Positions 1 to 31,929 of a DNA stretch of 64,000 nucleotides are shown here, piece by piece. Origin of the DNA: an uncultured virus (IMG/VR IMGVR_UViG_3300035188_001343) (taxonomy: Duplodnaviria; Heunggongvirae; Uroviricota; Caudoviricetes). The position numbers were made by a program, and so were the translations under genes. Within the stretch, counting starts at the first letter, position 1, and each line of letters starts with the position of its first letter. The notes under the pieces were generated by a model. It saw only the letters and a program-made list of their open reading frames with translations. It searched no databases and had not been told where the DNA came from. Location: IMG/VR virus record IMGVR_UViG_3300035188_001343; one strand, written 5' to 3'.

Positions 1-1383
1 TCATCCTTATTCAACGCTTATCAAGAAGAAAAAGATGGTAAATTAATCAATGATAATGATAGATTTAATCATACCTCATTATATGCAGATAGTGGTGGAT
101 TACAGGTAATCACCGCAGGTAAAACCATCAATGATGAGGTAAAAGAAAAAGTTTATAAAACTCAAGCAATGTATTGTGATTATGCTATGACATTCGATGA
201 AATGCCTGTAAAAATTGTTAAGGAGTTAGCAACTGGTTCGGTTGCAGGTGCTGACGGTCAGGTATTCATAGATGAATTGATTTCGATTTCTGCAAAAAAA
301 TCAGCAAAACATATACAGAAGCAGATAGATATGTTTGAAGAATTAAAAACAAACACTAAAATAATGCCTATTTTACACGGATACAGTGGTGAGACATTCA
401 TTGAATATGCACAAACAATTTTAAATGAATTGCACCATATAGGGGATCATATTCAAGGTGTTGCCATTGCATCATTAAGAGGTCACGCAGACAATAAAGT
501 TGGTATGATGAAAGTATTCGATTATGTACCCAAAGTTATCAATAGTGAAAAAATACCATCGGAGTATAAAAAACATGTGCATTTATTAGGTGTGGGTGCA
601 CATCAACGATTACTACCTGCATTGATGATGGTTAAAAAGGGTATTTTACCTATTGAAAAACTATCATTTGATTCTACAAAAATTATGAAATCATACACTT
701 ACGGTAAAGTTTTTCAATCTGTAGAGGAACTTATTAACCCAAAAAATTTTAATCCTGTGTTGACATTAAAAAAGTATGATGATAAAACACAACCAAACAT
801 TAAACAATTCTACGAGAATGTACATAATTTATTTTTCGATTACGATGATTATGTTTTTTCAGATTGGGAAGATTTAGCGAAACATTCCCAGAATAATGGT
901 GAACCTATTACTATGGGAAAACAATTTGAAAAGTATGGTGTGGAATATGAACGAAAATATTTATCACAGGTTCGGTATGCAACCATGTACCACATTTATA
1001 CGTTCTTGTCCGTTTGTGAGGCATATTTAGATGATGAATTAACCATTGAAAACATTATGGGGTATAATGATAGTATTTTGCACATATTTCAAAAATTTGA
1101 TTCTGTTAGTACACATGAGCAATTTGCTGAAGTATGTGATTATTTTTATACTACTGCGAAAACTGGCAGAACCGATTTAAGAATTGTAAAATGTAAAACA
1201 TTAAAAGAATTTGAGGAACGATTCGAACATAACCGGGTTGATAGTTATTTGGAACTGGGTATTGAAAAAGACGTAGAAATTCTAAATGAGGAATTAAAAA
1301 AACCATGGATAAAAACCTCAATGAAACGAGCAAAGGTAGTTGATTATTCGAATGAAATTCATCCCAGTGATGGATTGTTTTGA
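1..1383 (+). CDS. TGT/DpdA-like guanine transglycosylase paralogue 1 (5'-truncated by window)
   Basis: Frame is open from base 1 (SSLFNAYQEE...LYADSGGLQ). Motifs DSGG, MTFDE, ILHG, HVHLLG, SFDS of the TGT barrel; clearly paralogous to 15230, 16952 and 30586. Confidence 0.8.
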   Translation, partial: SSLFNAYQEEKDGKLINDNDRFNHTSLYADSGGLQVITAGKTINDEVKEKVYKTQAMYCDYAMTFDEMPVKIVKELATGSVAGADGQVFIDELISISAKKSAKHIQKQIDMFEELKTNTKIMPILHGYSGETFIEYAQTILNELHHIGDHIQGVAIASLRGHADNKVGMMKVFDYVPKVINSEKIPSEYKKHVHLLGVGAHQRLLPALMMVKKGILPIEKLSFDSTKIMKSYTYGKVFQSVEELINPKNFNPVLTLKKYDDKTQPNIKQFYENVHNLFFDYDDYVFSDWEDLAKHSQNNGEPITMGKQFEKYGVEYERKYLSQVRYATMYHIYTFLSVCEAYLDDELTIENIMGYNDSILHIFQKFDSVSTHEQFAEVCDYFYTTAKTGRTDLRIVKCKTLKEFEERFEHNRVDSYLELGIEKDVEILNEELKKPWIKTSMKRAKVVDYSNEIHPSDGLF

Positions 1384-1440
1384 AAATATAGTATAATTTA
1401 AAATAACATAATATTAAAAATAAAAAATTGGAGTATTAAT

Positions 1441-2214
1441 ATGATGGCTTTAACTGAGGTTTTCTGCTCAATTCAAGGGGAAGGTAGTAGTGCAGGCAAC
1501 ATTTCAATTTTCATTAGATTTTCGGGATGCAACTTTCAATGTCCGGGTTTTGGAGTGGAATATACAAACCCAAAAACGGGTGAAACGAAAAGGGGATGTG
1601 ATAGTTTTTATTCGGTTGATCCAGCATTTAAAAAAACATGGGATTATGTTGAAACTTTTGAAGAAATTGTGGATCTTGTTGATGCAATTATGCCAAAATA
1701 TCCAAAGGCACTTTTAACAAAACCCGATATTGTTATTACAGGCGGGGAACCAACAATAGCTTGGAAAAATCCAGAATTTCAAAAGTTGTTGGCTTATTAT
1801 ATATCAAGAAACCATGAGGTAACTATTGAAACTAATGCAAGTTTATACATTGAATTTAAAAGAGAATATCAAAGAAAAGTTAAATTTTCAATGAGTGTTA
1901 AACTAGCTGTTAGTGGTGAACCAGAACATAAAAGAATTAATATAGATAATATTACCAATATCGTTGAAAATTCACCACAAAGTTATTTAAAATTTGTAGT
2001 AGGTAAAGATAACATTGAAGAAACTGAAAAAGAAATTGATAGTATCTTAAAAGAGATACCAGTTTATTGTACGGTTTTTGTTATGCCTCTTGGGGACAAT
2101 AAAACTAATTTAGAATATAATGCAAGGTCGGTGATAGAAATGGCACTTAAAAAAGGATTTACGTATTCTGACAGATTACATATTCGTATATGGAACAATG
2201 AGATGGCTAGGTAA
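1441..2214 (+). CDS. queE: 7-carboxy-7-deazaguanine synthase (radical SAM)
   Basis: EVFCSIQGEG, FIRFSGCNFQC-x18-CDS, VITGGEP, IETN, SDRLHIRIW. Confidence 0.92.
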   Translation: MMALTEVFCSIQGEGSSAGNISIFIRFSGCNFQCPGFGVEYTNPKTGETKRGCDSFYSVDPAFKKTWDYVETFEEIVDLVDAIMPKYPKALLTKPDIVITGGEPTIAWKNPEFQKLLAYYISRNHEVTIETNASLYIEFKREYQRKVKFSMSVKLAVSGEPEHKRINIDNITNIVENSPQSYLKFVVGKDNIEETEKEIDSILKEIPVYCTVFVMPLGDNKTNLEYNARSVIEMALKKGFTYSDRLHIRIWNNEMAR

Positions 2215-2248
2215 AAACGGTAGTTTAAAAGAATTTTTTGGAAAAACT

Positions 2249-2623
2249 ATGAAAGGAATAATTACACAACTTAAAATGATTGAACTATCAATACTGGATA
2301 CATTATTCCTTTTTTTGATGACACTACTAGTTATTGGGTTGATTAACTGTGGAATATCGGTGCTTACATTTGGTGGTATAGTTTTAATATTTGGGGCATT
2401 TTTAACTTACAAGGGTCAAATATATCTTTCAGTTGCAACATACATTATTTCAGATTTGTGTTGGATATATAACGCATTTGAAAATAACGATCTTGTCGGT
2501 GTAACATTCATTTCTGTTGGAATATTTTTTGGCATTCTAGCAACATTTAAAATGAAGAATGGGCACATGGAAAAAGATTTAATTACTCGTAAAGTGAAAA
2601 CATCTAAGGTGAATAAAAAATGA
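2249..2623 (+). CDS. small multi-pass membrane protein
   Basis: Several hydrophobic segments; ATG 2249 chosen to avoid overlap with queE. Confidence 0.55.
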   Translation: MKGIITQLKMIELSILDTLFLFLMTLLVIGLINCGISVLTFGGIVLIFGAFLTYKGQIYLSVATYIISDLCWIYNAFENNDLVGVTFISVGIFFGILATFKMKNGHMEKDLITRKVKTSKVNKK

Positions 2624-3009
2624 TTGATATTTCACAGATTATTAAAGAATTTGAAGCGTTGACGGTTGATGAGTTAGAACGTCAATTTCAACAATTTGGT
2701 CTCAATCCTATTCGAAAATCATCAACTATACTTGAAAAATTGTATGGAATAGAAAATTATTTAGATGCACTAACGTATATTTGTAATATTGTTGAATTGG
2801 AACTTCAAAATGGGAATATAGAGTTAATAGATGATATTTTGAATAAGTATAATCCAGAAAAATGTGATATAATAGTTTCCACAAACATTCTCAGATGTTG
2901 TTTTAGAATTAAAAATGAATTACCACATTGGGATAGCACATTATTAAATGTGAAAAATCATTTGAATTCATTGTGTTTAGATGTAGAAAATATTTTGTGT
3001 TGTGTTTAA
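2620..3009 (+). CDS. hypothetical protein
   Basis: ORF coupled to upstream gene by ATGA overlap. Confidence 0.55.
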   Translation: MIDISQIIKEFEALTVDELERQFQQFGLNPIRKSSTILEKLYGIENYLDALTYICNIVELELQNGNIELIDDILNKYNPEKCDIIVSTNILRCCFRIKNELPHWDSTLLNVKNHLNSLCLDVENILCCV

Positions 3010-3030
3010 AAAAGTGTAAAGAAGGTATTT

Positions 3031-3660
3031 ATGTGTAGTATAATAGGCTCATTTTCAAAAGATAAATTTAAAGAATTGGTATTATTAAACCAACATAGGG
3101 GAACATTCTCCTACTCATTTTTAGTATTAAACCCAAAAAAATTAAAAATTGACACCCTTAAACAGGATTTTGGTTCGTTTGACTTAAATAGTATTGATGA
3201 TGCTACTGATGGTTATTATTTAGGACATTGCCAGGCACCAACAGGGGGTTTAATCAAAGATAAAGACAGGATTCATCCTGCAAAAATAGATGATGTATTT
3301 TTGTTTCATAATGGAATTATTAAACAAAAGGATGTTACTCGATTAAAAATGGAGCATGAAACATATGTTGAGTGGGATACCAAATTGATGCTCATGGAAA
3401 TTAAAAAAAATGGACTTACACCAACTTTGAATACCATTGATGGCAGTTTTGCTTGTGTTTATGTTGATGGTCTAAAATTTAGAATTTTTAGAAGTGCAGC
3501 CGGAACCTTATTTGTTGATGATTGTGGCAATATAAGTTCTACCAAATTTGAAAATTCTAATAGAATTGAACAAGGAAACGTATTTGTGTTGGATCTGTTA
3601 AATAATACGATGATAACAGAAGATAAATTTGTTTCCAAATCATCACCTTATTTTTATTAA
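3031..3660 (+). CDS. class II (Ntn) glutamine amidotransferase, stand-alone Gat-like domain
   Basis: N-terminal M-C nucleophile (MCSIIG), NQHRG, YLGHCQAPT, HP, LFHNGII, WDT, GSFAC. Confidence 0.85.
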   Translation: MCSIIGSFSKDKFKELVLLNQHRGTFSYSFLVLNPKKLKIDTLKQDFGSFDLNSIDDATDGYYLGHCQAPTGGLIKDKDRIHPAKIDDVFLFHNGIIKQKDVTRLKMEHETYVEWDTKLMLMEIKKNGLTPTLNTIDGSFACVYVDGLKFRIFRSAAGTLFVDDCGNISSTKFENSNRIEQGNVFVLDLLNNTMITEDKFVSKSSPYFY

Positions 3661-3679
3661 ATTAACCGAGATTTTAATT

Positions 3680-3907
3680 ATGCATGTTAAATATAAGATA
3701 CTAGAATATATAGCATTGTTTGTTTTTATCGGTTTATTGCAAAATAAATTTCCCGATAATACCTGGTGGAGTAGCTGGGATTTTTACACGATTATTATTG
3801 CATCAATTATATACAATGGTGTTTGTAATTTGCAGAATAAGGTTAAAACGAACAAAACATTGGAGAATACCAAACTAGGTTCAAAATCTGAAAAATTTTC
3901 ACAATAA
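3680..3907 (+). CDS. small membrane protein
   Basis: Two hydrophobic stretches. Confidence 0.45.
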   Translation: MHVKYKILEYIALFVFIGLLQNKFPDNTWWSSWDFYTIIIASIIYNGVCNLQNKVKTNKTLENTKLGSKSEKFSQ

Positions 3908-3929
3908 CACATAATATATGGGAGAAAAA

Positions 3930-4907
3930 ATGACTGATAACAAAGATATAAAAGAATCAAGCACAACAGAAAAAAAAGATGAAAAGGAAGATAATAAACC
4001 CACAGTGAGTTTTGGAACTGGTGGTGGACAAATTACTGCCGATTCACAGGAAAATGTTTCGGCTGGTGGAAATGTTTCTATTGATGGCACAATTGGTGGC
4101 GTAACTATTTCAGCAAATGCAGCAGGTGATACACATGCAAGTGCTGGGGTTGATGCAACTGATACATCGGTTGCATCAACTGCTGAAGTAGGAGTAAGTG
4201 CAACTTTAGGTATAAATGCGTCAGCACAGGTTGGTAATGTAACGATAGTAGGTGAAGAACATGTAAGTGCTACCGCAGATGCTGAAGCAAATGTGAGTGC
4301 AGGTTGGGATGGGCGTAATGCAAGTGTTACCGCAGAAGTTCAAGCGGGTGCAAGTGTTGAAATAGGTGCAAGTGTAGGCGTTACAACTGGAGATACCACT
4401 ATCACTCAAGAAGTACATGAGGGTGCAGAAGCAGAAGCTTATGCAGGTGGTACGGTTCAAGTAGGTAAAGATGGTGCAAGTGGTCATGCAGGTGCAATTG
4501 CAGGTGTAAGTGTTGGTGTGGGTGAAACTACTACCGTTGGTGATAGTCATGGTAATGCTGCGTCTGCAGGTGCAGGTGTTAGTATTGGGGCACAAGTTGG
4601 TGCAGAAGTTGAAGGTGGTGCCACTATGAAGGATGGTGTGGCAACTGTTGGTGTTGGGGGTGAAGTTGAATTATTGGCAGGTGTTGAAATTAATGCCAGT
4701 GTCAGTGTTGATACCAAACCTATTCAACAAGCGGCAGTTACTGCAGCAAATGAAACCGTGGGTGTTGTTAATAATATTGTTAATGAGGCTCCTGCGGTGG
4801 TTAATACTGTTGAAAATAAAACTGTTGAAGTAGTTAATACTGTGAGTAATGGTGTTAGTGATGTTGGTAAAAAAATTGGTAATGCCTTAAATCCTTTCCA
4901 TTGGTAA
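3930..4907 (+). CDS. Gly/Ala/Val-rich repetitive beta-strand protein
   Basis: GGAG SD before ATG 3930; low-complexity alternating beta-strand repeats (AGASVEIGASVG, AGVSVGVG). Confidence 0.7.
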   Translation: MTDNKDIKESSTTEKKDEKEDNKPTVSFGTGGGQITADSQENVSAGGNVSIDGTIGGVTISANAAGDTHASAGVDATDTSVASTAEVGVSATLGINASAQVGNVTIVGEEHVSATADAEANVSAGWDGRNASVTAEVQAGASVEIGASVGVTTGDTTITQEVHEGAEAEAYAGGTVQVGKDGASGHAGAIAGVSVGVGETTTVGDSHGNAASAGAGVSIGAQVGAEVEGGATMKDGVATVGVGGEVELLAGVEINASVSVDTKPIQQAAVTAANETVGVVNNIVNEAPAVVNTVENKTVEVVNTVSNGVSDVGKKIGNALNPFHW

Positions 4908-4931
4908 TTTTAAGGTATTACTATATGTTTT

Positions 4932-4959
4932 AAAAAGTGCTCTTACGAGCACTTTTTTT
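4932..4959 (+). terminator. intrinsic terminator
   Basis: AAAAAGTGCTC-TTAC-GAGCACTTTTT followed by T tract. Confidence 0.8.
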
Positions 4960-4969
4960 GCAAAAACTA

Positions 4970-4998
4970 TTTACATCACACAACAAATAAAGTACAAT
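4970..4998 (+). promoter_or_regulatory. sigma70-like promoter
   Basis: TTTACA-17 nt-TACAAT. Confidence 0.55.
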
Positions 4999-5146
4999 AT
5001 AATATACTCGATATATTTTCAAAATGTAAAGGGTATGAAACATTATACCAGTTTAAAAGTAAGCAATTTAATAGGAGGAAGAGAAAATAGGGGTTTACCC
5101 GTGCTTACCTCACCCGTATATTGAACGGGGGTGTTTCTCTCATAAT

Positions 5147-5836
5147 GTGATGAATTTAAAAATTACTGAAGACCAATTCAACATTTTGAAAAAATATGTA
5201 ATCTCGGAATATATTTTTGGTTCATGGTTACATAAAACAAATACAGTGAATTCCGATAAAGATGTTCTATTGATTTTAGATGATATTTTTGTATCTGATA
5301 GGATATATCCAAACATTCATTGTTTTCAATATGATGATGTGAAAAACAACATTCAATGGATGTTAACAACGGAAAGTACATTTAATAAAAACCTATTATC
5401 AGGAGAATCTAACATTTTTGCCGAATTGGTTTTATTTTCAGAATTCTCTAAATTTAATGATAAGTTATTGACGTGTAGAACGGTTAAAATTATTAAAGGG
5501 TTCATTGGGCGAGCAAAATTTGATTTGAAATTATTAGGTACTAGTAAAGACAAAAAGAATCGTAAAGCGTTTCATATTTCGAGATGTTTGTATATTGCAG
5601 AATGTCTGTTGGATAACAAACTACCAGATTTAAATTTGATTGGATGTTACTCAGATCTTGACAAAGATGCGTTGAGTGCTATGGAACTTAATCTACGAAA
5701 TAAATGTGTCGAATTGTATGAAAAAAATGAGTTGCATTGGTATCCTGTTTTATCTATCAATAATCAACATGATGAATTAAATGAATTGGATGAAATGTTG
5801 GCGGCGGCAAATAATTTAAAAGAATTTAATTATTGA
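5147..5836 (+). CDS. Pol-beta superfamily nucleotidyltransferase
   Basis: YIFGSWLHKTNTVNSDKD = GS...DxD motif. Confidence 0.7.
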   Translation: MMNLKITEDQFNILKKYVISEYIFGSWLHKTNTVNSDKDVLLILDDIFVSDRIYPNIHCFQYDDVKNNIQWMLTTESTFNKNLLSGESNIFAELVLFSEFSKFNDKLLTCRTVKIIKGFIGRAKFDLKLLGTSKDKKNRKAFHISRCLYIAECLLDNKLPDLNLIGCYSDLDKDALSAMELNLRNKCVELYEKNELHWYPVLSINNQHDELNELDEMLAAANNLKEFNY

Positions 5837-5903
5837 TTGTAGTATCATTTACTTCATTTTATAGTATAATACCTTTTCTAAAACGATAATAGGTATTAAA
5901 CAT

Positions 5904-8546
5904 ATGACTTATCCTGAAGTAAATGATTTACAATATATACGATCTGATGACATTTCAATTGAACCAAATTTGATTTCTTCCGACGACGAACTGTATGATG
6001 TTGGTTTAGAAAACTTTTTACCCGAGGTATATCCTAAAGTAGAATTAGTTGATGATGATGATGATGATGATGATGATGACTTTTTAAATGGTGAAAAAGA
6101 GGATCTTGCTTGTGGATTGCCTGATTATTTTCTAAGGAATAATATTCCTTCTTTAAAAGACATTAATTCATCTAAAGTAACAGTGGTTCCAATCGTTGTA
6201 ACTGCAAATGATAATATCATTAGTAAGGATGAATTGCGTGAGTTGGTTACTATAACTATTCCGGAGGGAAATAGATTTAGTGACCAAAACACTGACTTTA
6301 TTCAAATGAAATTTACTCCAGCCAAATGGTGTAGGAATGTTATAGATACCATAAACCGAAACCCAGATATAGAATGTGCTATTTTATTGGATCAAAACCA
6401 GAGAAATTATAAAAATGATATGGTTTCTAAAAAAACATTCGCCAATGATCTTGGTCATATGAAAACCAAAAATATGGAGGGTTCAATTGATTCACATGAT
6501 GATTTTGCGAATAAACATGAGGTAGCATATGAATTTTGTTTGTACCAGGACCCATCTGCACCAAATAGACCAACATACAATTCTGCTATTAATAATGATT
6601 ATAGGTATAAACTAATCATACTTTTGATTGATGGGTTACAACGCACGATGATGTTTTTACTTATATTCTTTGAAGGTGGATACACTAGAAATCTACTCGA
6701 TACGAGTGGTGATCAATGGAGGTATAGTTATTTTGATTTGTCGGCATTTTATCCCTACTATAATTCCAAAGGAATTCTATGTTATAAAATATTTCCGAGT
6801 CATCTGTCAGCACAAAAATCCGGTCATGTTTTTCTTAGTGCTGATGAAGTAAAAGAATTTAAAGCAAACAGAACGAAGAAATTAGATGGAGAATATATTA
6901 ATTTGATCCCATCACAAGAATTTGGAAAATTAGATTCTTATGTTCGTGATGGACAATTAGATGTTATTCATTTTGTTGAAAATATGATCGCTAAACACGA
7001 TCTGCGGTTTACTCGTGCTGCAGCAGAATCATTTATCAATTTTACACGTTTCATTTATGACAGATTATTCGTATGTGAAGATATAACTGTGGATCTCGAT
7101 ACAAAATCTACACCAGAATCTAACACTGAAAGATTTTTACAAATAAACGGTCGTGGTTTAAAAATGAACAAAGAATCCATGATTAATTCTAAATTAAATG
7201 GTGTTTCTGGAGTAAGATATAGTAAAGAGATTCTTGACCCAATTAGTGATTTATACCGAATGTGTGATGTCAAAAATCCAGAAGAAAAGGCTACCAGAAC
7301 ATTGGTTTCGGGCAACCATAAAAACACAAAACTGTATTTTAAGGATCAAAAATTACGAGAAAAATTAGAAAAAACTGAAAATCCGTTGTTGTTGCATGGT
7401 AAAGGAAATGGTACGATTAATGAAATGCAAAACACTGTCTTAAACAACGACCAAGAAGCAACAATTTGGGCAAAATTTTTCCTAACCAGTACTGCCGATG
7501 TTGAAGAAGCATGTAAATACACAAAAGAATTTTTTTATGCTGATAAAACTCAAAATTTGAGACCTAGCATGAATTTCATGACATCCTTGGATGATGACAA
7601 TAAGGCATTAATGGTTCATTTTATTTTCATCACTTATTTCAACATGATTGTTGAGGGTAGCAATTTCGATCCATACCTGATTAATAAAAAATATACCCAG
7701 GCTTCTCAAATTTTGAGAGTAATGTTTGGTTTGAAACCTATTACGAATTCTATTTCAACTGAAATATCACAAAAAACCAAATTTTGTTCGAACATTTCTC
7801 GCGATCTTGTGATAAACAAACTGAAATTTACTCCCGATAATTTAAAGAATGTTTGTGAACATCGCAACTGTAATTGGTCTCCCATTATGTCGTTGATTGT
7901 TGAGAGAGATTTCACTAATGCGACAAGAAACAAAGATGATTCCAACTATTTACACATTGTTTCGAATTTACTGCAACGGCCAAATGCGGCTAATAAACAA
8001 GCAGACCATATCCACCCACATAGTGTGATAAACGAACCATCAAAGGTCACTAAAAAAATTGATGCGAATTTTTCTGGTAGCACAGCAGCATTCAAAAATG
8101 AATTCAAACGGTTTATTGTAAAGTACAATAATACACCAATTGGAAAAATGCTATTGGACGACAAAGCGAATAAATCGAAAGGTGATGAGGATCCATCAAT
8201 TTTCTTCGATGAAAATGTTGTTCTCAGACCTACGATTAAATCGGATTATAAAATGAATATGTCCGATGAGCAGGTGATTGAAATTCTGAAATTCCGAAAC
8301 ATTATTGCTCGAATGGTTCATACTCAAAAAACTAGATTGCTCGAGTATGCCACACTAAACTATGGTGTTTGTGGTGAGGACAGTATGCGTTATCCACTGA
8401 AAACTGTTACCAATGAATTGGCTTTTGATACCCTGCTACAGGCTACGAATATGGAGCATGATTATCCAACACTGTATGATCAAGTCATGAATACTTCGGG
8501 CAGCACATTGTCTAGGGACACCATATTAAGTTTGCAGGAATTGTAA
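5904..8546 (+). CDS. GmrSD-like protein (DUF262/ParB-like N-domain + C-terminal HNH/DUF1524-like)
   Basis: NQRNY and IDGLQR (QR / DGQQR motifs); C-terminal DHIHP...IGKMLL...NKSKGD. Confidence 0.6.
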   Translation: MTYPEVNDLQYIRSDDISIEPNLISSDDELYDVGLENFLPEVYPKVELVDDDDDDDDDDFLNGEKEDLACGLPDYFLRNNIPSLKDINSSKVTVVPIVVTANDNIISKDELRELVTITIPEGNRFSDQNTDFIQMKFTPAKWCRNVIDTINRNPDIECAILLDQNQRNYKNDMVSKKTFANDLGHMKTKNMEGSIDSHDDFANKHEVAYEFCLYQDPSAPNRPTYNSAINNDYRYKLIILLIDGLQRTMMFLLIFFEGGYTRNLLDTSGDQWRYSYFDLSAFYPYYNSKGILCYKIFPSHLSAQKSGHVFLSADEVKEFKANRTKKLDGEYINLIPSQEFGKLDSYVRDGQLDVIHFVENMIAKHDLRFTRAAAESFINFTRFIYDRLFVCEDITVDLDTKSTPESNTERFLQINGRGLKMNKESMINSKLNGVSGVRYSKEILDPISDLYRMCDVKNPEEKATRTLVSGNHKNTKLYFKDQKLREKLEKTENPLLLHGKGNGTINEMQNTVLNNDQEATIWAKFFLTSTADVEEACKYTKEFFYADKTQNLRPSMNFMTSLDDDNKALMVHFIFITYFNMIVEGSNFDPYLINKKYTQASQILRVMFGLKPITNSISTEISQKTKFCSNISRDLVINKLKFTPDNLKNVCEHRNCNWSPIMSLIVERDFTNATRNKDDSNYLHIVSNLLQRPNAANKQADHIHPHSVINEPSKVTKKIDANFSGSTAAFKNEFKRFIVKYNNTPIGKMLLDDKANKSKGDEDPSIFFDENVVLRPTIKSDYKMNMSDEQVIEILKFRNIIARMVHTQKTRLLEYATLNYGVCGEDSMRYPLKTVTNELAFDTLLQATNMEHDYPTLYDQVMNTSGSTLSRDTILSLQEL
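6051..6080 (+). repeat. (GAT)9GAC microsatellite encoding poly-Asp10
   Basis: Direct reading of the sequence. Confidence 0.95.
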
Positions 8547-8553
8547 GAATCTG

Positions 8554-8589
8554 ATTATGGGGCAATCTAACTATAGATTGCCCCATAAT
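8554..8589. terminator. 16-bp perfect inverted repeat / terminator
   Basis: ATTATGGGGCAATCTA-ACTA-TAGATTGCCCCATAAT. Confidence 0.75.
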
Positions 8590-8657
8590 TTCTGTCAGAA
8601 GTATAAATTGTGGTATAATTTAATTTTAAATTTTAACAAATTGATTGATATAAAACT

Positions 8658-9014
8658 ATGAAACTTAAAGATTTAGTTGAAGCAACCGAATTGTCCTATG
8701 AAGAAAAATTGAAATCGGAAGAATATGTTGTTAAAATGAACATCCAAGATATTGTTCAGATACCAGAATGGCAGGAACTCAGAAGTTATTTTGTTGGTAA
8801 ATGGAAATCACAACCAGAAAAAAATTTACAAATGTTAAAAGATTTTGCTGGGGACTTAAAAAAATTATCCAACCGAAGATTGCGCATTATTCAAAATTAT
8901 GTTACCGGTTCAGCATTTCGTATTGGTATTATTGCTAATGAGGATATAAAAGAGTTTACTGAAGCGGTTCGTAAAGAGGTAGCAGATAGAAAAGCAGATG
9001 GGCGGTGGAAATGA
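8658..9014 (+). CDS. hypothetical protein with MKLxDL-E N-terminus
   Basis: ORF; N-terminus resembles the ORFs at 55217 and 55504. Confidence 0.6.
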   Translation: MKLKDLVEATELSYEEKLKSEEYVVKMNIQDIVQIPEWQELRSYFVGKWKSQPEKNLQMLKDFAGDLKKLSNRRLRIIQNYVTGSAFRIGIIANEDIKEFTEAVRKEVADRKADGRWK

Positions 9015-9484
9015 GAATAAATTGTATTGATGTTTCTGATTTGGCTGATCAACATTTGCGAGCAGAATGGTTGGAATTTTTAATGGTTGGTCCATATGTT
9101 AGGAGATCATTAAAATCGAAGAAAGGTATCTCATTTTCAAATTCAACTCGGTATGTGTTAGGGACAGGTCATGCGAGATTCTTCTATGATAAGTTAGGGT
9201 ATGTTGAAAATAGATACAAGCAAATCGAACATGAAATGCACGCAAGAGGATTTAAAACTAACCCAAATTTAGAGTTAAGTGATTTACCAAAAAATCTGTT
9301 TAATAGTTGGACACCAACAAAAGATGATAAAATACTCAATTTAAACCGCATAATTGCCAGGATATCTGATAAACCAAAATGGTATAAATTTAAAAATGCC
9401 CAGATGGAAGATTGGGTGGATTTTTATGAAAAAAGATATGATTTTACATACAATTATGATATAATACATTATGGTAAAAAATAA
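9011..9484 (+). CDS. denV: pyrimidine-dimer DNA glycosylase / endonuclease V
   Basis: MRIN...LADQHLRAEW; YVLGTGHARFFYDKLGY as in T4 DenV. Confidence 0.88.
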   Translation: MRINCIDVSDLADQHLRAEWLEFLMVGPYVRRSLKSKKGISFSNSTRYVLGTGHARFFYDKLGYVENRYKQIEHEMHARGFKTNPNLELSDLPKNLFNSWTPTKDDKILNLNRIIARISDKPKWYKFKNAQMEDWVDFYEKRYDFTYNYDIIHYGKK

Positions 9485-9507
9485 ACTTTAACTTAGAGAG
9501 AGTAAAA

Positions 9508-9939
9508 ATGTTTGCTAAATGGTATGAAGTAAATGGTGTAAAATGCCAGGGAAATGTAGAGAAAAATGTGGCGGAAATGATGGTTGAAAATAATCACTTT
9601 TTCTCTCGTGGAAAAGCAATTAAAACTCCGTTTGGTAACTATACACCAGATTTTGATTGTGACACCTATTTTGTTGAAGTGAAAACTTTACATAGTTGGT
9701 TACAAGCTTTAGGTGTGACAAGCTTATTGGAAAACGCAAAAAAAGATGAATTTGCTAAATTATCAAACAATTCTCAACAAAAAATGGAATGGGTTAATGA
9801 AAATGTTAAACCCGTTTATGTCTATATTGAAATTTCTGAAAATTCAAAAAAATTCAAAGATGTTTTCGAACCATCTCATACCTTATCAACAATCAAAGGT
9901 AATATCCAACAGTTACGACAATTTTTGACAACCATGTAA
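9508..9939 (+). CDS. PD-(D/E)XK nuclease-like protein
   Basis: YTPDF...FVEVK. Confidence 0.6.
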   Translation: MFAKWYEVNGVKCQGNVEKNVAEMMVENNHFFSRGKAIKTPFGNYTPDFDCDTYFVEVKTLHSWLQALGVTSLLENAKKDEFAKLSNNSQQKMEWVNENVKPVYVYIEISENSKKFKDVFEPSHTLSTIKGNIQQLRQFLTTM

Positions 9940-9997
9940 AAAATTGTAAAAAATTGTAAAATATCATAAAATAATTAATATTTACAAGGAATATAAA

Positions 9998-10762: not shown

Positions 10763-10764
10763 GT

Positions 10765-12201: not shown

Positions 12202-12255
12202 TGTTTTAAGTATCAAAAACAATTTAAAAAAATTAAACTAAACAAATTTTGGAGT

Positions 12256-12861: not shown

Positions 12862-12866
12862 AAAAT

Positions 12867-14005: not shown

Positions 14006-14016
14006 AAATAATTACT

Positions 14017-14487: not shown

Positions 14488-14505
14488 ATAAGATTTGAGA
14501 ACATC

Positions 14506-18463: not shown

Positions 18464-18481
18464 TTAGTGAGATAAACCTTT

Positions 18482-18673
18482 ATGATTGAAACTATTGAAA
18501 CTGCCGATTATATAAAATACAAATGTGAAAATTGCACTAAATTCTTTTTGATTGGTTCGGGAATTATAGCAGAAATACAACATAATAAAATTTCAAGTGA
18601 ATCGTGTGATTCTTTTACAAAATTAACCGCATTATGTTCGAGTTGTGTATCAAAATTAAAAATTGAACTATAA
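18482..18673 (+). CDS. small Zn-finger-like protein
   Basis: CxxC...CxxC. Confidence 0.4.
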   Translation: MIETIETADYIKYKCENCTKFFLIGSGIIAEIQHNKISSESCDSFTKLTALCSSCVSKLKIEL

Positions 18674-18684
18674 CTTTTTAAATA

Positions 18685-23107: not shown

Positions 23108-24916
23108 ATGATTAAACAAATGATATTGTTGACTGCCTTATCTGCATATACATTAACAGTAAATGCAGATAATAATATCCAACAACTCGAACCAATGTTA
23201 ATTACAAGTGAAAGTGGTACCAATTTAGTGGAGGATCCAACTAAACTTGTACAAAATACGATCGAAAAAATCAACTATGAAACCGTAATGCAAGAAACTA
23301 ACCCGGGTATGAAACAACCCGTTATTAGAGGGTTGATGGGTGATCAAGTTGCATTATCGGTAGATGGTATCAAATTCTCTAACTCGTTGTTTAGAGGCGG
23401 TCCAAACCAATATTATTCGTGGATTCCCGATGAGTTTACAACTGCGGCTTCATTGAATGATTCAGTTAATACAATGAGTAACAGTGCGTTGGGTGGATCT
23501 GTTGATAGAACTTTGGGTGTGGATAGATCACAGATGGGTATCTCTACCAATTTTAGAGGTCATACCGAATACGCAAAATATAAAAACACTGATTGGCAAA
23601 CAGCAGTTCTTAATACTGATAATGATGATGTATCTACACCAAACGGTATTGTGCCACACTCTGCATATAATCAGAAAGGTGCATTATTAGCACATACCAA
23701 CAAAGACTATGGTGATACAAAACTCGTGTTCACTAGAAGTGATAATGTTGATAGAACTGATAAATTTGCAAGTGGTGGATTTTACCAATACGATTTACAA
23801 CAGTATATCTTAGCATCCCATAAATTGTGGGTGAACGATCGTAAAATTTATATTCAACCTTCGTTTCAGCGATTTGAAGAAAAATTGGATTTAAACAGTC
23901 CTTTAGCAAAAAATGTTGATTCAAGCGATAATATGTATGGTATTAATGTTGGTTCATTCTATGATACTCAGTATGGCGTGTTAAATTATGGTGTTGCAGA
24001 TTCATATGAAGATATCAACGTAGTTACAGGTATTAAACCAGCTCAGTACAATTATAATACCTTAACTGGTTTTGGAGTATGGGATGGAAATATTACCCCA
24101 GATGACAATTACAAATTGAAATACAGTTATTCATTGATGGATACCTCAGGTAATGGTTTAAATAGAACCCTTGGTAATCATGCATATGGTGTAAATTTAA
24201 AACATGTATTTGCACCAGAAAACTATTCATACTTTGATTTTGACGTTGCATCAAAATTCCCAACAATCAATAACTTAGCATTAGCAAGAAATGATAGTGT
24301 TACTGAATTACCAAACCCAAATTTAAAACAAGAACGTGCAAATACTTATACTATTGGTCATCAATTCCATGGGTTAGACATTTCATTGTTTTATAAAGAT
24401 TTATCGGATGTAATCATTAGAACTCAAACGGATGTTCCCGATGGAAAAGGTAAATTTAAATGGCAATATAATAACGCAAATACTGGTCACATTGCAGGTG
24501 TTAAATTAGCTTATAATAGAACATTTGATACTGGTACAGGTGTTTATATGATGACTGAGTATCTTGATGGTAGAAATGATTATGATTATTGGGGAAAACT
24601 CACTCCATTACATTCAGAAATCAAATTAACTCAAAATGTAGATTGGTTATTTAAAGATAAGTTGATTGCACAATGGAGATATGCACCATCAGTTCCCACA
24701 GATAGAATTGCATTAAATGATGCTATTGATGTGAGAATTAAAAACCACAATTATGGATATAATATGTTGAATCTTGGTTATGAAACCACCTATGATAAAC
24801 AACATAAAGTATCATTGTTGGTAAACAACGTATTAAATAACACCGGTAGAGTATATGGTTCGTCTGTAGATTTCAACGAACGTATGCTATACCTAAAATA
24901 TAATTATTTGTTTTGA
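23108..24916 (+). CDS. TonB-dependent outer-membrane receptor
   Basis: Signal peptide; plug motif PVIRGL-x5-LSVDG; PNPNLKQE; NNVLN; terminal aromatic beta-signal YLKYNYLF. Confidence 0.85.
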   Translation: MIKQMILLTALSAYTLTVNADNNIQQLEPMLITSESGTNLVEDPTKLVQNTIEKINYETVMQETNPGMKQPVIRGLMGDQVALSVDGIKFSNSLFRGGPNQYYSWIPDEFTTAASLNDSVNTMSNSALGGSVDRTLGVDRSQMGISTNFRGHTEYAKYKNTDWQTAVLNTDNDDVSTPNGIVPHSAYNQKGALLAHTNKDYGDTKLVFTRSDNVDRTDKFASGGFYQYDLQQYILASHKLWVNDRKIYIQPSFQRFEEKLDLNSPLAKNVDSSDNMYGINVGSFYDTQYGVLNYGVADSYEDINVVTGIKPAQYNYNTLTGFGVWDGNITPDDNYKLKYSYSLMDTSGNGLNRTLGNHAYGVNLKHVFAPENYSYFDFDVASKFPTINNLALARNDSVTELPNPNLKQERANTYTIGHQFHGLDISLFYKDLSDVIIRTQTDVPDGKGKFKWQYNNANTGHIAGVKLAYNRTFDTGTGVYMMTEYLDGRNDYDYWGKLTPLHSEIKLTQNVDWLFKDKLIAQWRYAPSVPTDRIALNDAIDVRIKNHNYGYNMLNLGYETTYDKQHKVSLLVNNVLNNTGRVYGSSVDFNERMLYLKYNYLF

Positions 24917-24929: not shown

Positions 24930-25322
24930 ATGTATTATATCCTATATAGTGATAAAATTCGGACGGTATCACCCGAAATTGAATATAACCGAGGTCAAAA
25001 TATACCATTTCGAGAAGGGTATTTTTTAATTGGTGTGGATGAAAAAAAACAAAGTGCAATTATATTTGACATTAATGGTGAAAGTAGAGTAACAAACAGT
25101 ATTACGATTTACGATTCAACTATTTTTATCGAAGGTGAATTATACAAGGTTATTCCTACATTGACATTTAACCACCCTGTCAGAGCCGAAATGGTTTTCT
25201 TAAATTTGAAAGTTACAGAATTTAAAAACGTCGGATTTAATTTTTATTTACCTATATTGTTTCAGAAATATGTTGATAGATTCGACTGTTTAAATGAACA
25301 ATATCCTGAATGTATTATTTAG
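24930..25322 (+). CDS. hypothetical protein
   Basis: ORF. Confidence 0.5.
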   Translation: MYYILYSDKIRTVSPEIEYNRGQNIPFREGYFLIGVDEKKQSAIIFDINGESRVTNSITIYDSTIFIEGELYKVIPTLTFNHPVRAEMVFLNLKVTEFKNVGFNFYLPILFQKYVDRFDCLNEQYPECII

Positions 25323-26650: not shown

Positions 26651-27193
26651 ATGCATTCATTAAATGTACCAAATATCATGCACGATATGAAAACTGAACC
26701 AGTTGGTGCTTATTTAGAATCGGAACATAGAAACTTTGCTCTATATACTATACAACAACGTGCTATAACTTTTTTTTCAGGATTAAAACCAGTCCAACAG
26801 CGGTGCTTATGGCAACTTAGAAATATAAACAATTTTGAAAAAGTTGCAAAACTTACAGGTTTAACAATGTCCTTACATCCACATGGTGACTGTATTGATT
26901 ATAATTCGGAAATCTTATTAGCTGATGGTAATTACATAAAAATTGGTGAATGGGTTGAAAAAAATTATGATGGTGAGTTACTAATCAAAGCTTTTGATAT
27001 TGAACAAAATAAATTTGTCGATACTGTTGCCAAACCTACAAATGGAAAAATGGTAGATGAACTGATTGAAATTGAAATGGAGAATGGTGAAATTTTGAAA
27101 GTTTCACTGGATCATAAAGTATTATTAGATGATGGTGCTACGTATATTGAAGCAAAAGATCTAACCGAAAACCATTCAATTAAATCACTGTAA
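26651..27193 (+). CDS. type II topoisomerase GyrA/gp52-like subunit, N-extein + split intein N-half
   Basis: GLKPVQQR...HPHGD then C1 of intein (CIDYNSEILLADG, 26891) with block B SLDH; 100-aa IntN. Confidence 0.9.
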   Translation: MHSLNVPNIMHDMKTEPVGAYLESEHRNFALYTIQQRAITFFSGLKPVQQRCLWQLRNINNFEKVAKLTGLTMSLHPHGDCIDYNSEILLADGNYIKIGEWVEKNYDGELLIKAFDIEQNKFVDTVAKPTNGKMVDELIEIEMENGEILKVSLDHKVLLDDGATYIEAKDLTENHSIKSL

Positions 27194-27229: not shown

Positions 27230-28483
27230 ATGAAAATTAAATCAATCAAAAAAGTTAAATTAGAAACACCAATTCAGTTATATGATATTACTGTACCAGA
27301 TTATAGTAATTTCTGTATTAAATCTGGTGATAAAAATCTAGTAATACACAATTCATCAATCAGTGAATCCATCAACCAAATGACTGGGCAATACTGTAAT
27401 AATGTTCCTTTTTTTGATGGTCATGGTGCATTTGGTACAAGGGTGAATCCTACTGCATTTGGTCAACCACGATATGTATCCGCAAAAATCAGTAATTTTG
27501 CAAAAGATGTTATTTTTAAAGATTGGGAAATTGTTGAGTTAAAACCATCTTATGATGAAACGGATTTCGAACCGACTATGTTGCTACCATTAGTACCGCT
27601 TGTATTATTAAATGGTATTCAAGGTATTGCAACTGGTTATTCTACAACCATTCTTCCAAGAAATCTACCAGATCTCATCGATCAGCAATTAAGAGTGTTA
27701 CAAGGTAAGACACCAATAAATCCATTACCTTATTCAAAACCAATTGATAATTTGGCTGTTAGAAATGAAACGTCCCCAAACAAATATCAATTTTCGGGTG
27801 AATGTGAGGTAATTGATACTGCAACAGCAAAAATAACTAAACTACCTTTTGGTATGACACACGCAAAAATCGTTGAAAATTTAGCGAGAATGGTTGATAA
27901 AGGTCATATTATTGATTATATTGATAAAACTAAAGCTGAAATTGATATTATTGTTATATTTAAAAGAGCAACACTTAAAAATAAAACGGGCGAGGCGGCA
28001 GTAAAAAAATTAGGTTTAACAACGGGTGTTACAGAACGTATTATTGTGTTGGATGCTGAAACATCACAAAAAGTGGTGGAGTATGACGATCCTGCACAAT
28101 TTATTAAAGATTATACAGATTGGCGTTTAAGTTTTTATCCAACGAGATATAAAAGACTTATCCAACTTAACTTGGCAGAAATAAGTCGGTTAAATGACAT
28201 TGTTCTCGCAATTGATAATGATTTGGGTGGTCAAGCTAAAAAATTAAATAATCGCACGGATTTGATTGATTTTATTACTAAAATTGGTGTTGTGGATATT
28301 ACATATATTTCCTCACTACCAGTTTATAGATTTACTCGTGATGAATATGACAAAGCAAAAAATAAAATTGCTGAATTAGAAGCTCAAAACGAAGATTATA
28401 CGAACATCATTGGTGATGTTGATAGACAAAAATCTATTTTTTCCGATGAGTTAAAAGAAGTTAAGAAAAAATACGGTAAATAA
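27230..28483 (+). CDS. split intein C-half + topoisomerase GyrA/gp52-like C-extein
   Basis: MKIKSIKKV...YDITV...NF...VIHN (41 aa) then S+1; catalytic PRY; LLNGIQGIATGY. Confidence 0.9.
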   Translation: MKIKSIKKVKLETPIQLYDITVPDYSNFCIKSGDKNLVIHNSSISESINQMTGQYCNNVPFFDGHGAFGTRVNPTAFGQPRYVSAKISNFAKDVIFKDWEIVELKPSYDETDFEPTMLLPLVPLVLLNGIQGIATGYSTTILPRNLPDLIDQQLRVLQGKTPINPLPYSKPIDNLAVRNETSPNKYQFSGECEVIDTATAKITKLPFGMTHAKIVENLARMVDKGHIIDYIDKTKAEIDIIVIFKRATLKNKTGEAAVKKLGLTTGVTERIIVLDAETSQKVVEYDDPAQFIKDYTDWRLSFYPTRYKRLIQLNLAEISRLNDIVLAIDNDLGGQAKKLNNRTDLIDFITKIGVVDITYISSLPVYRFTRDEYDKAKNKIAELEAQNEDYTNIIGDVDRQKSIFSDELKEVKKKYGK

Positions 28484-28545: not shown

Positions 28546-29736
28546 ATGACGAATACAATTTATTATATTGACAAGATTGATAATAATGAAACTTTATTTA
28601 AAAGTATGATTGAGCAAAATTATCCATATGAATTATGGGATTTATATTTGACCAACACTAAAGTTTTGAGAAATTACATACTTGAAATGATAGTCAAATA
28701 TGTAGATCATGAAGGCGAGGTAGTAGTAAAAGAATTTTCCGATGTACCACCTATGATTTATGATGATTTAAATAAATTTAAATTTGGTATTCCGGAAATT
28801 TCTACAAATACGATAATTGTTAATAAAGCATTGACTATATCTACTATTGAGGCAGTAAATTCAAAATTTGATGCAAAGTATTCATTAATGGTTGAGGCTT
28901 TAGACACAACCAATATATCGACTAAAAGTTGGAATAATTATCTCGATGAATTATATATCCATTATTGTGAAAATAGATTAAATGCACGAATTACAAAGAT
29001 TGTTGTAGAAGATACAATATCAGTTCTCACAAAATGGGATACTAATACAAATATAAAGGATAAAATTAAGGCTTATTTCCCGGAACAAGGAATAGTTTTC
29101 GATTCAAATACTTATTGGAAACTACCCCTTTCACATATTTCCAAAACATATTGGGAAAAATTTTCATTCGTACTAACAATAAACGATTATGATTTTTATG
29201 ATCCAGCAAAAGAAAAATATTTAGACTGTATAGCAAATGAATTATTTGATAAAGGGTGTTTTGATGAGATTGTTATAACTATGAACTATTGGTATTGGGC
29301 CGACAATTATAAAAAAATCATGGATTGGACAAAAAATAATGTAAAATCCGTTTTAATAAGTTATAGATTGAATACTATTTTTGACATAACTAAAAATAGA
29401 TATTTCAATAATGAACAAGCTACACATTATAATGATTACCAACGCAAAAACACACCATCCGAAATAATTGAAATGTATAAAAATCAATTACCTGTTTTTC
29501 TCAATTCGATATTAGAAAATCCACAAACTTATGGATTCGAATTGAAAGGTGGTTATTTTGGACGCGAAGGGAATGTGCCACAACCTAGTACACAGTCTGA
29601 TGAATTCACAGATTATAAGGACCATGTTTACAGTAACTTAGTAACATCTCCATTTGCAAATTTAAATGATAATTCAGTTGTAGTATTTAGAGAATCAAAT
29701 GTTAAAGTATTTACATGTGTGAAACAATTAGAGTAA
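28546..29736 (+). CDS. hypothetical protein
   Basis: 396-aa ORF, no recognised motif. Confidence 0.7.
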   Translation: MTNTIYYIDKIDNNETLFKSMIEQNYPYELWDLYLTNTKVLRNYILEMIVKYVDHEGEVVVKEFSDVPPMIYDDLNKFKFGIPEISTNTIIVNKALTISTIEAVNSKFDAKYSLMVEALDTTNISTKSWNNYLDELYIHYCENRLNARITKIVVEDTISVLTKWDTNTNIKDKIKAYFPEQGIVFDSNTYWKLPLSHISKTYWEKFSFVLTINDYDFYDPAKEKYLDCIANELFDKGCFDEIVITMNYWYWADNYKKIMDWTKNNVKSVLISYRLNTIFDITKNRYFNNEQATHYNDYQRKNTPSEIIEMYKNQLPVFLNSILENPQTYGFELKGGYFGREGNVPQPSTQSDEFTDYKDHVYSNLVTSPFANLNDNSVVVFRESNVKVFTCVKQLE

Positions 29737-30200: not shown

Positions 30201-30241
30201 TATGATTTAGTATAATTTTTTAAACAATTTTTTTTTAAAGG

Positions 30242-30526
30242 ATGTTAATTATGACATTTGAAATGACTATTAATAATATAACTTATGTTAAAGATGATCT
30301 CGGTTCAGAAACATGGGATTATATCAAACAACAATTGCACGATGTAAAAAATAATGGGAACTTAGTATCCGTACAACTTAAAACTATACAGGATGGAGAA
30401 TTTTCAGATTATGTGATACTATATGGAATTTACGAAAAAACAATTGAGGAAGATAATACCTATATGTCTTCAGGTGGGTTATGGGTATATTCTGATCCAT
30501 CACTGTTATTAACTGCAATGATGTAA
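30242..30526 (+). CDS. hypothetical protein
   Basis: ORF after TAGTATAAT box. Confidence 0.55.
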   Translation: MLIMTFEMTINNITYVKDDLGSETWDYIKQQLHDVKNNGNLVSVQLKTIQDGEFSDYVILYGIYEKTIEEDNTYMSSGGLWVYSDPSLLLTAMM

Positions 30527-30585
30527 TGTCATTTTTTTTTGTAAAATAGATATATTCACATTATTTTTCCATAGGATAAATCGTC

Positions 30586-31929
30586 ATGTTAAATAAATTA
30601 AAATTAGAGTATGTTGAGTCAGCTTGGATTATTTTGTATCAACTTACCAATAGCGATACAAAACTTTTAAAGGAAACAACTGATCTATTTCAAAAAAATT
30701 TGAAATATATGTTAGAAAAAATTGACAACAACGATCTAATATTTTCGGGATTATTTAATGCATACACCGAAGATAAGAATGTTGAAAGATTAAAAACTGT
30801 ATTGGATTTTAATAAAACGAATGGTTTACATACATTTCAATATGCTGATAGTGGCGGATTACAAATTGTCAATACCGGTGCAGTGGTAAACGATGAATTG
30901 AAACGGAAAATATACACATATCAGGCAGAAAACTCAAATTTTGCATTTTCGTTTGATGAAATCCCTGCATTCCGAAATCAAGATAAAACAAGAACTTATG
31001 TCGATGAATGGGTAAAACCTTATGCTATTAAAGCTGGAATAAATTTACAAGAACACATTGATATTTTTAAAAAATTAAAAACGAAAACAAAGTTAATACC
31101 AATCATTCAAGGATTTGATTATTCCCAAATTGAATCCTATACAAAAAATATGCTAAATCAAATTAAAAAACCAGATCTTAAAGAAATTGGTGCAATTGCG
31201 TGTGGAAATGCACATGGAAATGGTTTTGGCACTTTGGATAACTTTATGGCATTACAAACTATGGATATTCCAGTAAGTTTAAAAAACCACACACATCTAT
31301 TAGGAGCAAGTGGTATAGATCGCATTGCTCCTATTCTAACTGTAGTTAGAAATGGGTTGATAACCGATATGGATAGATTATCATTCGATAGTTCATATCA
31401 TACTCAATCCTATGTATATGGTGAGGTACAACGAAATACCCAACATCTCATGAATAATATAAAAATTCATCGTTTGGGATTGAACCGAAATCAATATGTT
31501 GAAAATAGGTTTTTAGAAATGATTGATTTTTGGAAGGATTGTAATACATTCAATTTTATAGATTTAGAAGATGTGTTTTGCCATTCCATTTATGATGATG
31601 CAGGTATAAATTCACCAGCAAAACAATTAAAATCAAGAACGGATGTTGACTATATCAAAAATATAAATGTAATTCAAATGCATATTATGTTCAACATATA
31701 CAAATACATAACATTGTTATATGATTTCATTGAAGACAGAATTGGTTTTTATGATTTATTCCATAATGACAAATATTTTATGTTTTATAGTGCCTTGGCA
31801 AATGTAAAAACCTATGGAGAATACATTGACTGGCGTGAGGATGCAATCAAAAAATTTAAATTTGTTCGTGCAACCAACATTATGAAATTTGATAATTCAA
31901 AAAATACCGAAACAGATTTTTTATTTTAA
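30586..31929 (+). CDS. TGT/DpdA-like paralogue 4
   Basis: LFNAYTE, ADSGGLQ, FSFDE, IIQG, HTHLLG, SFDS. Confidence 0.8.
   Translation: MLNKLKLEYVESAWIILYQLTNSDTKLLKETTDLFQKNLKYMLEKIDNNDLIFSGLFNAYTEDKNVERLKTVLDFNKTNGLHTFQYADSGGLQIVNTGAVVNDELKRKIYTYQAENSNFAFSFDEIPAFRNQDKTRTYVDEWVKPYAIKAGINLQEHIDIFKKLKTKTKLIPIIQGFDYSQIESYTKNMLNQIKKPDLKEIGAIACGNAHGNGFGTLDNFMALQTMDIPVSLKNHTHLLGASGIDRIAPILTVVRNGLITDMDRLSFDSSYHTQSYVYGEVQRNTQHLMNNIKIHRLGLNRNQYVENRFLEMIDFWKDCNTFNFIDLEDVFCHSIYDDAGINSPAKQLKSRTDVDYIKNINVIQMHIMFNIYKYITLLYDFIEDRIGFYDLFHNDKYFMFYSALANVKTYGEYIDWREDAIKKFKFVRATNIMKFDNSKNTETDFLF

Follow-up and report, generated by a model that had tools for sequence, protein, structure and literature searches.

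The -LF endings shared by a set of DNA-modifying enzymes in a 64,000-nt stretch of phage DNA (IMG/VR record IMGVR_UViG_3300035188_001343; 30% G+C; hereafter the window) are supported as a conserved short linear motif and not a product of chance. Endings of the form [ST][DNE]xLF-COOH, each after a variable polar tail, were present on four tRNA-guanine transglycosylase (TGT)-like proteins of the window, on a fifth encoded upstream of it, on one DUF5591 protein and on an RNase HII. Docking through C-terminal clamp peptides is a textbook class of mechanism. The endings in this phage were read, with a probability of about 0.7, as docking peptides for a sliding clamp, the toolbelt of the replisome. 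For the DpdA2 family as a whole the clamp-docking reading is well supported, because the tails follow a T4-type consensus and co-vary with polymerase tails, and it is held there with more confidence than for this phage.

Window positions 1..18800 coincide exactly with the terminal part of viral contig G002 (306,333 bp; rated completeness 85%), past which the window extends for another 45.2 kb. The contig and the window tail were joined into a sequence of 351,533 bp comprising 418 non-overlapping open reading frames (ORFs) of at least 50 aa. A relative of 224 kb (G003) covers 53 kb past the window's end; it is distant, with a match to 85 of the 418 ORFs.

The window paralogues were as follows.

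1..1383, plus strand: DpdA2-type paralogue with the end PSDGLF (tail codons 1363-1380); phrog_10773, E = 9.1e-35, or 3.4e-59 for the full ORF.

15230..16885, plus strand: DpdA2-type paralogue of 551 aa with a long polar tail and the end ITSELF; phrog_10773, E = 3.5e-49.

16952..18463, plus strand: DpdA2-type paralogue of 503 aa with the end TTNLLF; phrog_10773, E = 6.1e-45.

30586..31929, plus strand: DpdA2-type paralogue of 447 aa with the end ETDFLF; AlphaFold2 model, Foldseek, and tblastn to the nt-1 DpdA2 locus (8e-21).

The first of these runs off the window start, with its 3' 460 codons inside; the full ORF has 518 aa and starts 173 nt upstream. All C-termini quoted in the initial annotation (these four, PSNSLF and DDILFG) were read correctly. 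The fifth paralogue, directly upstream of the window (L001 9956..11311) and ending TDFLF, was added here. Position 1 of the tail peptides was Ser or Thr and position 2 was Asp, Asn, Ser or Glu.

Of the 81 ORFs of 50 aa or longer that lie wholly or partly in the window, 6 ended in LF, where composition predicts 0.34 (P = 1.4e-6); with paralogues collapsed to 3 independent families, P was 0.005. The genome-wide count that the initial annotation had proposed gave the same direction. Over the 351,533 bp, 14 of the 418 ORFs ended in LF, compared with expectations of 1.8 by composition, 1.6 by internal LF frequency and 4.1 by position-specific frequencies. Phe occupied the last position in 42 of the 418, twice its overall frequency. 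Seven of the 14 belonged to the pattern (five TGT-like proteins, one DUF5591 protein and one RNase HII), and three belonged to a large family with structured ends. The remainder were a 602-aa ORF, an HNH-type ORF, a 323-aa ORF and a doubtful 123-aa ORF. Three features with comparable ends outside the pattern were recorded.

G002 12293..13060, 135714..141591, 157270..158088, 188164..194593 and 201604..202422: family with the end LP[ED]K[IL]KN[LI][LF]F, three members LF-ending.

23108..24916, plus strand: ORF of 602 aa with the end YNYLF; PF07715 (Plug), E = 0.0059, below cut-off; signal-like N-terminus.

49369..49755, plus strand: orphan acidic ORF of 128 aa with the end DDILFG; no family matched.

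The LP[ED]K[IL]KN[LI][LF]F family has at least 12 members and no PHROG or Pfam match, and its end looks structured rather than tail-like. The LF end of the 602-aa ORF had not been listed before. It is probably unrelated to the tail motif, given the lack of a preceding polar tail, the signal-like N-terminus and the weak Plug match, and the ORF may encode an outer-membrane-barrel-like protein of the phage. The DDILFG end resembles the end of T4 gp43. In a search of 5.8 billion proteins the sole match of this orphan ORF was itself, so that the significance of its end cannot be judged.

All five paralogues were members of phrog_10773. Their description as TGT paralogues in the initial annotation held by fold, on the evidence of the model and Foldseek, but was not recovered by Pfam, in which the four window paralogues matched no family at E <= 0.001. 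An AlphaFold2 model of 30586..31929, built from 45 aligned sequences, had a predicted local distance difference test (pLDDT) score of 90.8. The top 50 Foldseek matches of this model in the PDB were all tRNA-guanine transglycosylases or the DNA preQ0 insertase DpdA (7b2i_C at 2.5e-7; DpdA 7ui4 at rank 21). A profile-to-PDB match to the TGT 2ash covered the FDE region only (E = 0.45). By tblastn the same protein matched Vibrio phage nt-1 within VPFG_00171 with 27% identity (E = 8e-21), and the matched ORF sits between FolE and QueC, beside the ArcS gene VPFG_00169. D88 (in DSGGLQ), D124 (in FDE) and D268 (in SFDS), which we take to be the catalytic Asp residues of TGT, were invariant in 45 of 45 sequences, all five paralogues included. 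The five paralogues therefore look catalytically intact. On fold and family membership they are assigned as predicted DpdA2-type DNA transglycosylases, which would swap guanine for a 7-deazaguanine. Further genes of the predicted pathway lay nearby.

1441..2214, plus strand: radical-SAM, QueE-like protein; PF13353 (1.6e-5) and PF04055 (2e-4).

9998..10762, plus strand: QueC of the 7-deazaguanine pathway; PF06508 (1.4e-54).

A weak glutamine-amidotransferase match was also found among the modification genes, with QueC and the QueE-like protein. An 880-aa ORF inside the cluster (5904..8546) gave a weak GmrSD_N match (E = 0.00038, below cut-off).

The tails behaved as a motif on an otherwise unconstrained linker. 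The window paralogues are 28-40% identical, and past the last conserved helix their tails, which vary in length by tens of residues, could not be aligned. L and F were nevertheless invariant as the last two residues, despite 20-100 preceding residues that cannot be aligned. Polar or charged residues made up 59-86% of positions -27 to -6. In the model of 30586..31929, residues 438-447 had pLDDT below 50, with a short helix at 442-446. The relative G003 has six paralogues, and the LF end was kept in all six.

For the wider family, 416 members were collected by a profile search of 1.84 billion representatives, and the best 150, mutually no more than 50% identical, were tested. Two bulky hydrophobic residues were present among the last four in 129 of these 150 representatives, compared with 211 of 777 control ORFs. 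The strict pattern [ST][LIVM][DE].[FLMIW][FLMIWV].{0,2}$ was found in 56/150 representatives and in 1/777 controls. The C-terminal column logo of the family was [ST]-L-[ED]-x-[LF]-F with a basic linker before it, and in the sub-group of 22 representatives nearest the window 19 ended exactly in LF. The -LF ends are thus both enriched in the phage and conserved in homologues, contrary to the refuting outcome named in the initial annotation.

The ending was also present on enzymes outside the TGT-like group.

12855..13598, ATG at 12867, plus strand: DUF5591 (ArcS-core-like) protein with the end PSNSLF; PF17884, E = 8.4e-10 (39.1 bits against a cut-off of 26).

14506..15162, plus strand: second DUF5591 paralogue, a contrast case without LF tail; PF17884, E = 4.2e-10, above cut-off.

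G002 149405..150019: RNase HII of 204 aa with the end TDILF after a polar stretch; PF01351, E = 7e-23.

The LF-ending DUF5591 protein had been described as ArcS-like. At domain level this was borne out, but the ArcS motif PC-X3-KPY-X2-S-X2-H, as quoted in PMC10516641, and looser forms of it were absent from both window DUF5591 proteins, which are therefore named ArcS-core-like only. Among homologues of the tailed DUF5591 protein the LF end was kept in 6 of 8. For RNase HII it was present in 62 of the best 120 of 742 homologues and in 29 of the 30 closest. Where many bacterial homologues end, the phage RNase HII continues into an additional C-terminal extension. In the DpdA2 cluster of G003 a GT4-like glycosyltransferase (G003 105266..106705, L087) ends in an acidic -LLF, which hints that it may be a further clamp-tailed DNA-modifying enzyme. 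The ArcS of Vibrio phage nt-1 carries a like motif. Judged from sequence comparison, the LF ending appears to have become established on enzymes with four unrelated folds (TGT, DUF5591, RNase HII and glycosyltransferase), all predicted to act on DNA, and it appears to have arisen independently on RNase HII and DUF5591.

Co-variation of the tail with the polymerase tail was measured in other phages. Twelve other phage records with a DpdA2 family member were taken, and the last seven residues of DpdA2 were compared with those of the family-B polymerase (PolB) of the same record. A clamp of the gp45 type (phrog_223) was encoded in 11 of the 12. Summed tail similarity between DpdA2 and its own PolB was 207, compared with 131.4 +/- 18.9 for shuffled pairings (P = 0.0002), and for six of the DpdA2 tails the polymerase of the same record was the best match among all 12. 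One record had identical final heptapeptides in DpdA2 and the polymerase, and in another both shared the same unusual aromatic final residue. Within the replication module of phage ACP17, the tail was common to the polymerase and DpdA2 only, among 28 coding sequences.

When an ACP17-like DpdA2 tail (45 aa) was co-folded with its own gp45 in three copies, the score was 0.53, compared with 0.00 for the best of 3 controls, which offers weak support. Runs agreed in at least 50% of contacts, and partner pLDDT was at least 42. The mark was reached by 51 of 78 solved complexes and by 2 of 108 mismatched pairs; scores of 0.60 or under were obtained for only 5 of those 78 solved complexes, but for all 4 passing mismatches (of 180). 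The pass may also reflect memory, because like complexes are solved.

The family motif was compared with the clamp-binding peptides of T4. The end of T4 gp43 and an internal loop of T4 ligase carry LDFLF, which binds a hydrophobic pocket of gp45 (PMC6212786), and the ends of gp43, gp33 and gp55 are interchangeable and stand on divergent linkers (PMC2988020). Members of the DpdA2 family resemble the gp45 clients of T4 and RB69 in bearing, at the C-terminus or close to it, a short peptide of hydrophobic and acidic residues on a flexible linker that diverges in sequence. The family consensus [ST]-L-[ED]-x-[LF]-F fits S-L-D-F-L-F, and in most relatives the polymerase of the same phage bears the same peptide. 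Unlike those clients, the proteins here are base-exchange and base-finishing enzymes, not replication or transcription factors. The resemblance to a clamp-binding motif that had been noted at the outset thus stands for the family, in which the motif is conserved, of the T4 LDFLF type and co-varies with the polymerase tails in 12 phages, but is less secure in this phage.

Several results in this phage and its relatives weigh against clamp docking. The window motif is shortened to x-x-L-F-COOH: the tails have no counterpart of the first Leu in the T4-type motif, and their last residues are invariably L-F-COOH. D-F-L-F was present in two of them (30586..31929 and the upstream paralogue), and the others keep x-x-L-F only. 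The gp55-like late sigma factor of the phage lacks such a tail. Comparison with the phage's own DNA polymerase, as proposed in the initial annotation, did not reveal the peptide there either. The family-B polymerase was fragmented, with four or more pieces scattered across > 60 kb (window 24930..25322; G002 246953..248692, 257123..257830 and 279267..280169), with homing-endonuclease genes beside some of them. The C-terminal piece was as follows.

24930..25322, plus strand: family-B polymerase C-terminal thumb fragment; tblastn, and MAFFT alignment against four full-length relatives.

This fragment stops about 22 residues before the tail site of the relatives, and its G003 ortholog does the same. 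The defining control, a tail on the phage's own polymerase, therefore fails in this phage. Among the 12 relatives, DpdA2 was without the motif in two, nt-1 (L064) and Vibrio 1.081.O (L060), and two further DpdA2/PolB pairs matched poorly.

A clamp or clamp loader was recognised neither in the 351.5 kb nor in the 224-kb G003; this negative is limited, since the genome is incomplete and diverged clamps escape sequence searches. G002 and G003 were searched in six frames with Pfam and PHROG clamp profiles, and the last 45 kb of the window as called ORFs (PHROGs, Pfam and hhalign). PF02916, PF09116, PF00712, PF02767 and PF02768 gave nothing at E <= 10 in G002 and G003 (for PF02916, E <= 1 and G002 only), and no phage DnaN was found in the Pfam searches. 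There was one match to phrog_223 (E = 0.003), and matches to phrog_168 were at the level of the Walker A motif only. PHROG and Pfam scans of 76, 84, 84, 85 and 68 ORFs yielded no clamp. Searches by phmmer with the ACP17 gp45, gp44 and gp62 were negative or uninformative. By hhalign, 199 ORFs compared with a gp45 profile gave 3.8% at best, and comparison with a gp44 profile gave generic AAA+ similarity only, the widest match being G003 192539..193453, beyond the window's end (94% over 134 columns). Neither gp45 nor gp44/62 was thus found in this phage, in contrast to T4 and RB69. The proposal that the enzymes are tethered to the phage's own clamp is accordingly not supported by the genes found in either sequence.

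Three ORFs were considered as clamp candidates and were not supported as such. The Atlas model of G002 256040..256657 was GNAT-like. The Atlas model of window 28546..29736 was TIM-barrel-like at low confidence (template modelling score at most 0.49). The third, G002 276251..276910, modelled poorly (pLDDT 60.1); Foldseek matched nothing at E <= 0.001, and VIA-align returned N-terminal helical matches only. Among the Foldseek rows short of significance were a few clamps, which we discount. This last ORF (minus strand, 219 aa, beside gp32) matched no family and is 67-74% identical in three otherwise diverged phages, a conservation unusually high for this genome. The ORF at 28546..29736, of 396 aa, lies just upstream of a DpdA2 paralogue and is conserved in G003 (44% identity); going by its model, it may be one more barrel enzyme of the pathway, strongly diverged.

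Clamp docking as the function of these tails would work as follows. Each enzyme would comprise a folded catalytic body, a disordered polar linker of about 20-100 residues and a terminal [ST][DNE]xLF-COOH peptide, of which two or three hydrophobic side chains would occupy the pocket that a DNA sliding clamp offers to its clients. In this way the five DpdA2 enzymes, RNase HII and the DUF5591 enzyme, a probable finisher of the base on DNA, would stay on newly replicated duplex, and base exchange would then follow the fork. We infer both that the tails bind a clamp and that they do so in this phage.

Two receptors were considered. The phage has a gp23-like capsid, baseplate wedge genes, gp46/47, gp32, UvsX and the gp55-like late sigma factor, and is a distant T4 relative with abundant homing endonucleases and split genes; its capsid is closest to those of Rak2/GAP32-like giant phages (31-33% identity). 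A minimal Pol III alpha was present as two separate pieces outside the window (G002 23734..24243 and 40537..41187; PF07733 and PF17657). Such a split is described as a hallmark of 'group 2.2' jumbo phages, and group 2 jumbo phages typically carry an RFC-like loader and a PCNA-like clamp (PMC7824862). One credible receptor, though we would place it a little short of even odds, is a clamp of the PCNA/gp45 superfamily that the phage encodes in the unsampled part of its genome or that is too diverged to recognise. Such a phage clamp is at least as likely as the host clamp, because group 2 jumbo phages typically have a PCNA-like clamp and the genome is incomplete.

The host beta clamp is a somewhat less likely receptor. 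The bacterial beta-clamp-binding motif QL(S/D)LF is found at C-termini (PMC9690074). The phage tails share its L-F-COOH end, Q-x-x-L-F ended 28 of the 120 listed RNase HII homologues (mostly cellular-looking), and the phage has the Pol III alpha-like pieces. The tails depart from the bacterial motif at two positions, with Ser or Thr in place of the leading Gln and with Asp, Asn, Ser or Glu where the motif has Leu at position 2; the pentapeptide itself was found in no tail. E. coli RNase HII is stated in a review not to bind the beta clamp (PMC11253446), and this, together with the extension on the phage RNase HII, cuts against a simple beta-clamp reading. Confinement of the modification to phage DNA, which had been suggested together with the tethering, was not supported and would not follow if the receptor were the host beta clamp.

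A more specific form of the clamp reading was also framed, and is put forward only tentatively. A giant-phage lineage whose polymerase has lost its clamp tail, and for which no clamp loader was recognised, would have put a minimal x-x-L-F-COOH on a set of DNA enzymes, which would ride a clamp of another type, possibly a hijacked host beta clamp. The set would comprise five or six DpdA2 paralogues, perhaps differing in sequence or base preferences, the DUF5591 finisher, the G003 glycosyltransferase and RNase HII. If this were true, a wholesale 7-deazaguanine recoding of the genome would be strictly co-replicative.

In archaea and eukaryotes RNase HII is well established as a client of the clamp, and a PCNA:RNase HII complex (3p83) was present among the structure matches listed. 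This bears on the strongest competing explanation, in which the tails dock on some other shared hub: a phage scaffold gathering the modification enzymes, or a helicase, a single-stranded DNA-binding protein or a polymerase fragment. Such a hub would fit a lineage in which no clamp or loader was found and whose polymerase has no tail, and the added extension on the phage RNase HII suggests adaptation to a phage-specific receptor. It is made unlikely by the presence of the motif on this classic client and by the rest of the family, where the motif tracks the polymerase clamp tail in phages with gp45-type clamps, and no candidate hub was identified. Short hydrophobic C-termini can also be protease tags. 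A degradation or stability tag, or an autoinhibitory plug that folds back on the enzyme, would need no partner, and the short terminal helix of the model, although of low confidence, counts in favour of this reading. Both would leave the co-variation with the polymerase tail in 12 phages unexplained, as well as the restriction of the ending to DNA-acting enzymes of unrelated folds, and we give this explanation little credence.

Chance combined with shared ancestry is the least probable explanation of all. Leu, Phe and stop codons are AT-rich, the genome is AT-rich as well, and paralogues would inherit the end. The doubling of Phe at the last position raises the fitting expectation to the position-specific one in place of the compositional one, and at least four other LF-enders are probably unrelated to the motif (the 602-aa ORF, the HNH-type ORF, the 323-aa ORF and the repeat-like family members). 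Against chance stand the final LF, invariant where the preceding residues have diverged past alignment, and its retention in every paralogue of G003, distant as that phage is. The strict motif, moreover, is frequent in the family representatives and nearly absent from the controls, and the ending appears to have originated independently on RNase HII and DUF5591.

Clamp docking of the tails was then set against what is described for related modification systems. In Vibrio phage nt-1 the enzyme family is the same, and the DpdA2 and ArcS genes lie among preQ0 pathway genes, with DUF5591 partners as here. The nt-1 system differs in having one DpdA2, compared with five paralogues here, and its DpdA2 is without a tail whereas its ArcS has one. 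In the accessible text of PMC6884629 and PMC10516641 the word 'clamp' has no occurrence, and insertion is called post-replicative, phage 7-deazaguanine modification being described in the latter as a post-replicative base exchange. A DNA-modifying enzyme that rides a clamp, modifying DNA during replication, has a precedent of a kind in the T4 alpha-glucosyltransferase, unlike the present case without involvement of a C-terminal motif. Its binding to gp45 is an older in vitro claim (cited as ref. 20 in bioRxiv 10.64898/2025.12.06.692756); according to the same preprint the interaction was not reproduced in vitro or in vivo, which weakens the precedent and with it the case for docking. A literature search, covering mainly titles and abstracts, found no published link between DpdA and a clamp or between deazaguanine and a clamp. 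In the searchable papers DpdA2- and ArcS-type enzymes are not described as clamp clients. The window adds a five-fold paralogy, the presence of the tail on RNase HII and DUF5591 as well, and the unusual pairing of a polymerase that lacks the tail with the lack of a detectable clamp.

Further features of the window were recorded. A GroEL-type chaperonin and an NAD salvage set (NMNAT-like protein and nicotinamide phosphoribosyltransferase) were encoded at 20980..22614 and 62201..63999. A gene for the A subunit of topoisomerase II was broken by an intein-like segment, and a DnaB-like helicase was split by endonuclease genes (26651..27193, 27230..28483, 43070..43807 and 45673..46857 in the window). 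The endonuclease ORFs that split the helicase are DUF7487 and phrog_22677 ORFs on the opposite strand.

The efficiency of DpdA enzymes ranges from < 0.1% to 100% of guanines. If the reading of the tails as clamp-docking peptides is true, the tail would be a concrete mechanism by which DpdA finds and keeps up with new phage DNA, and DNA base-exchange enzymes would join the clamp toolbelt. The presence or absence of the tail may also track efficiency: phage nt-1, whose DpdA2 has no tail, modifies < 0.2% of its G (PMC6884629), a hint from one data point only.

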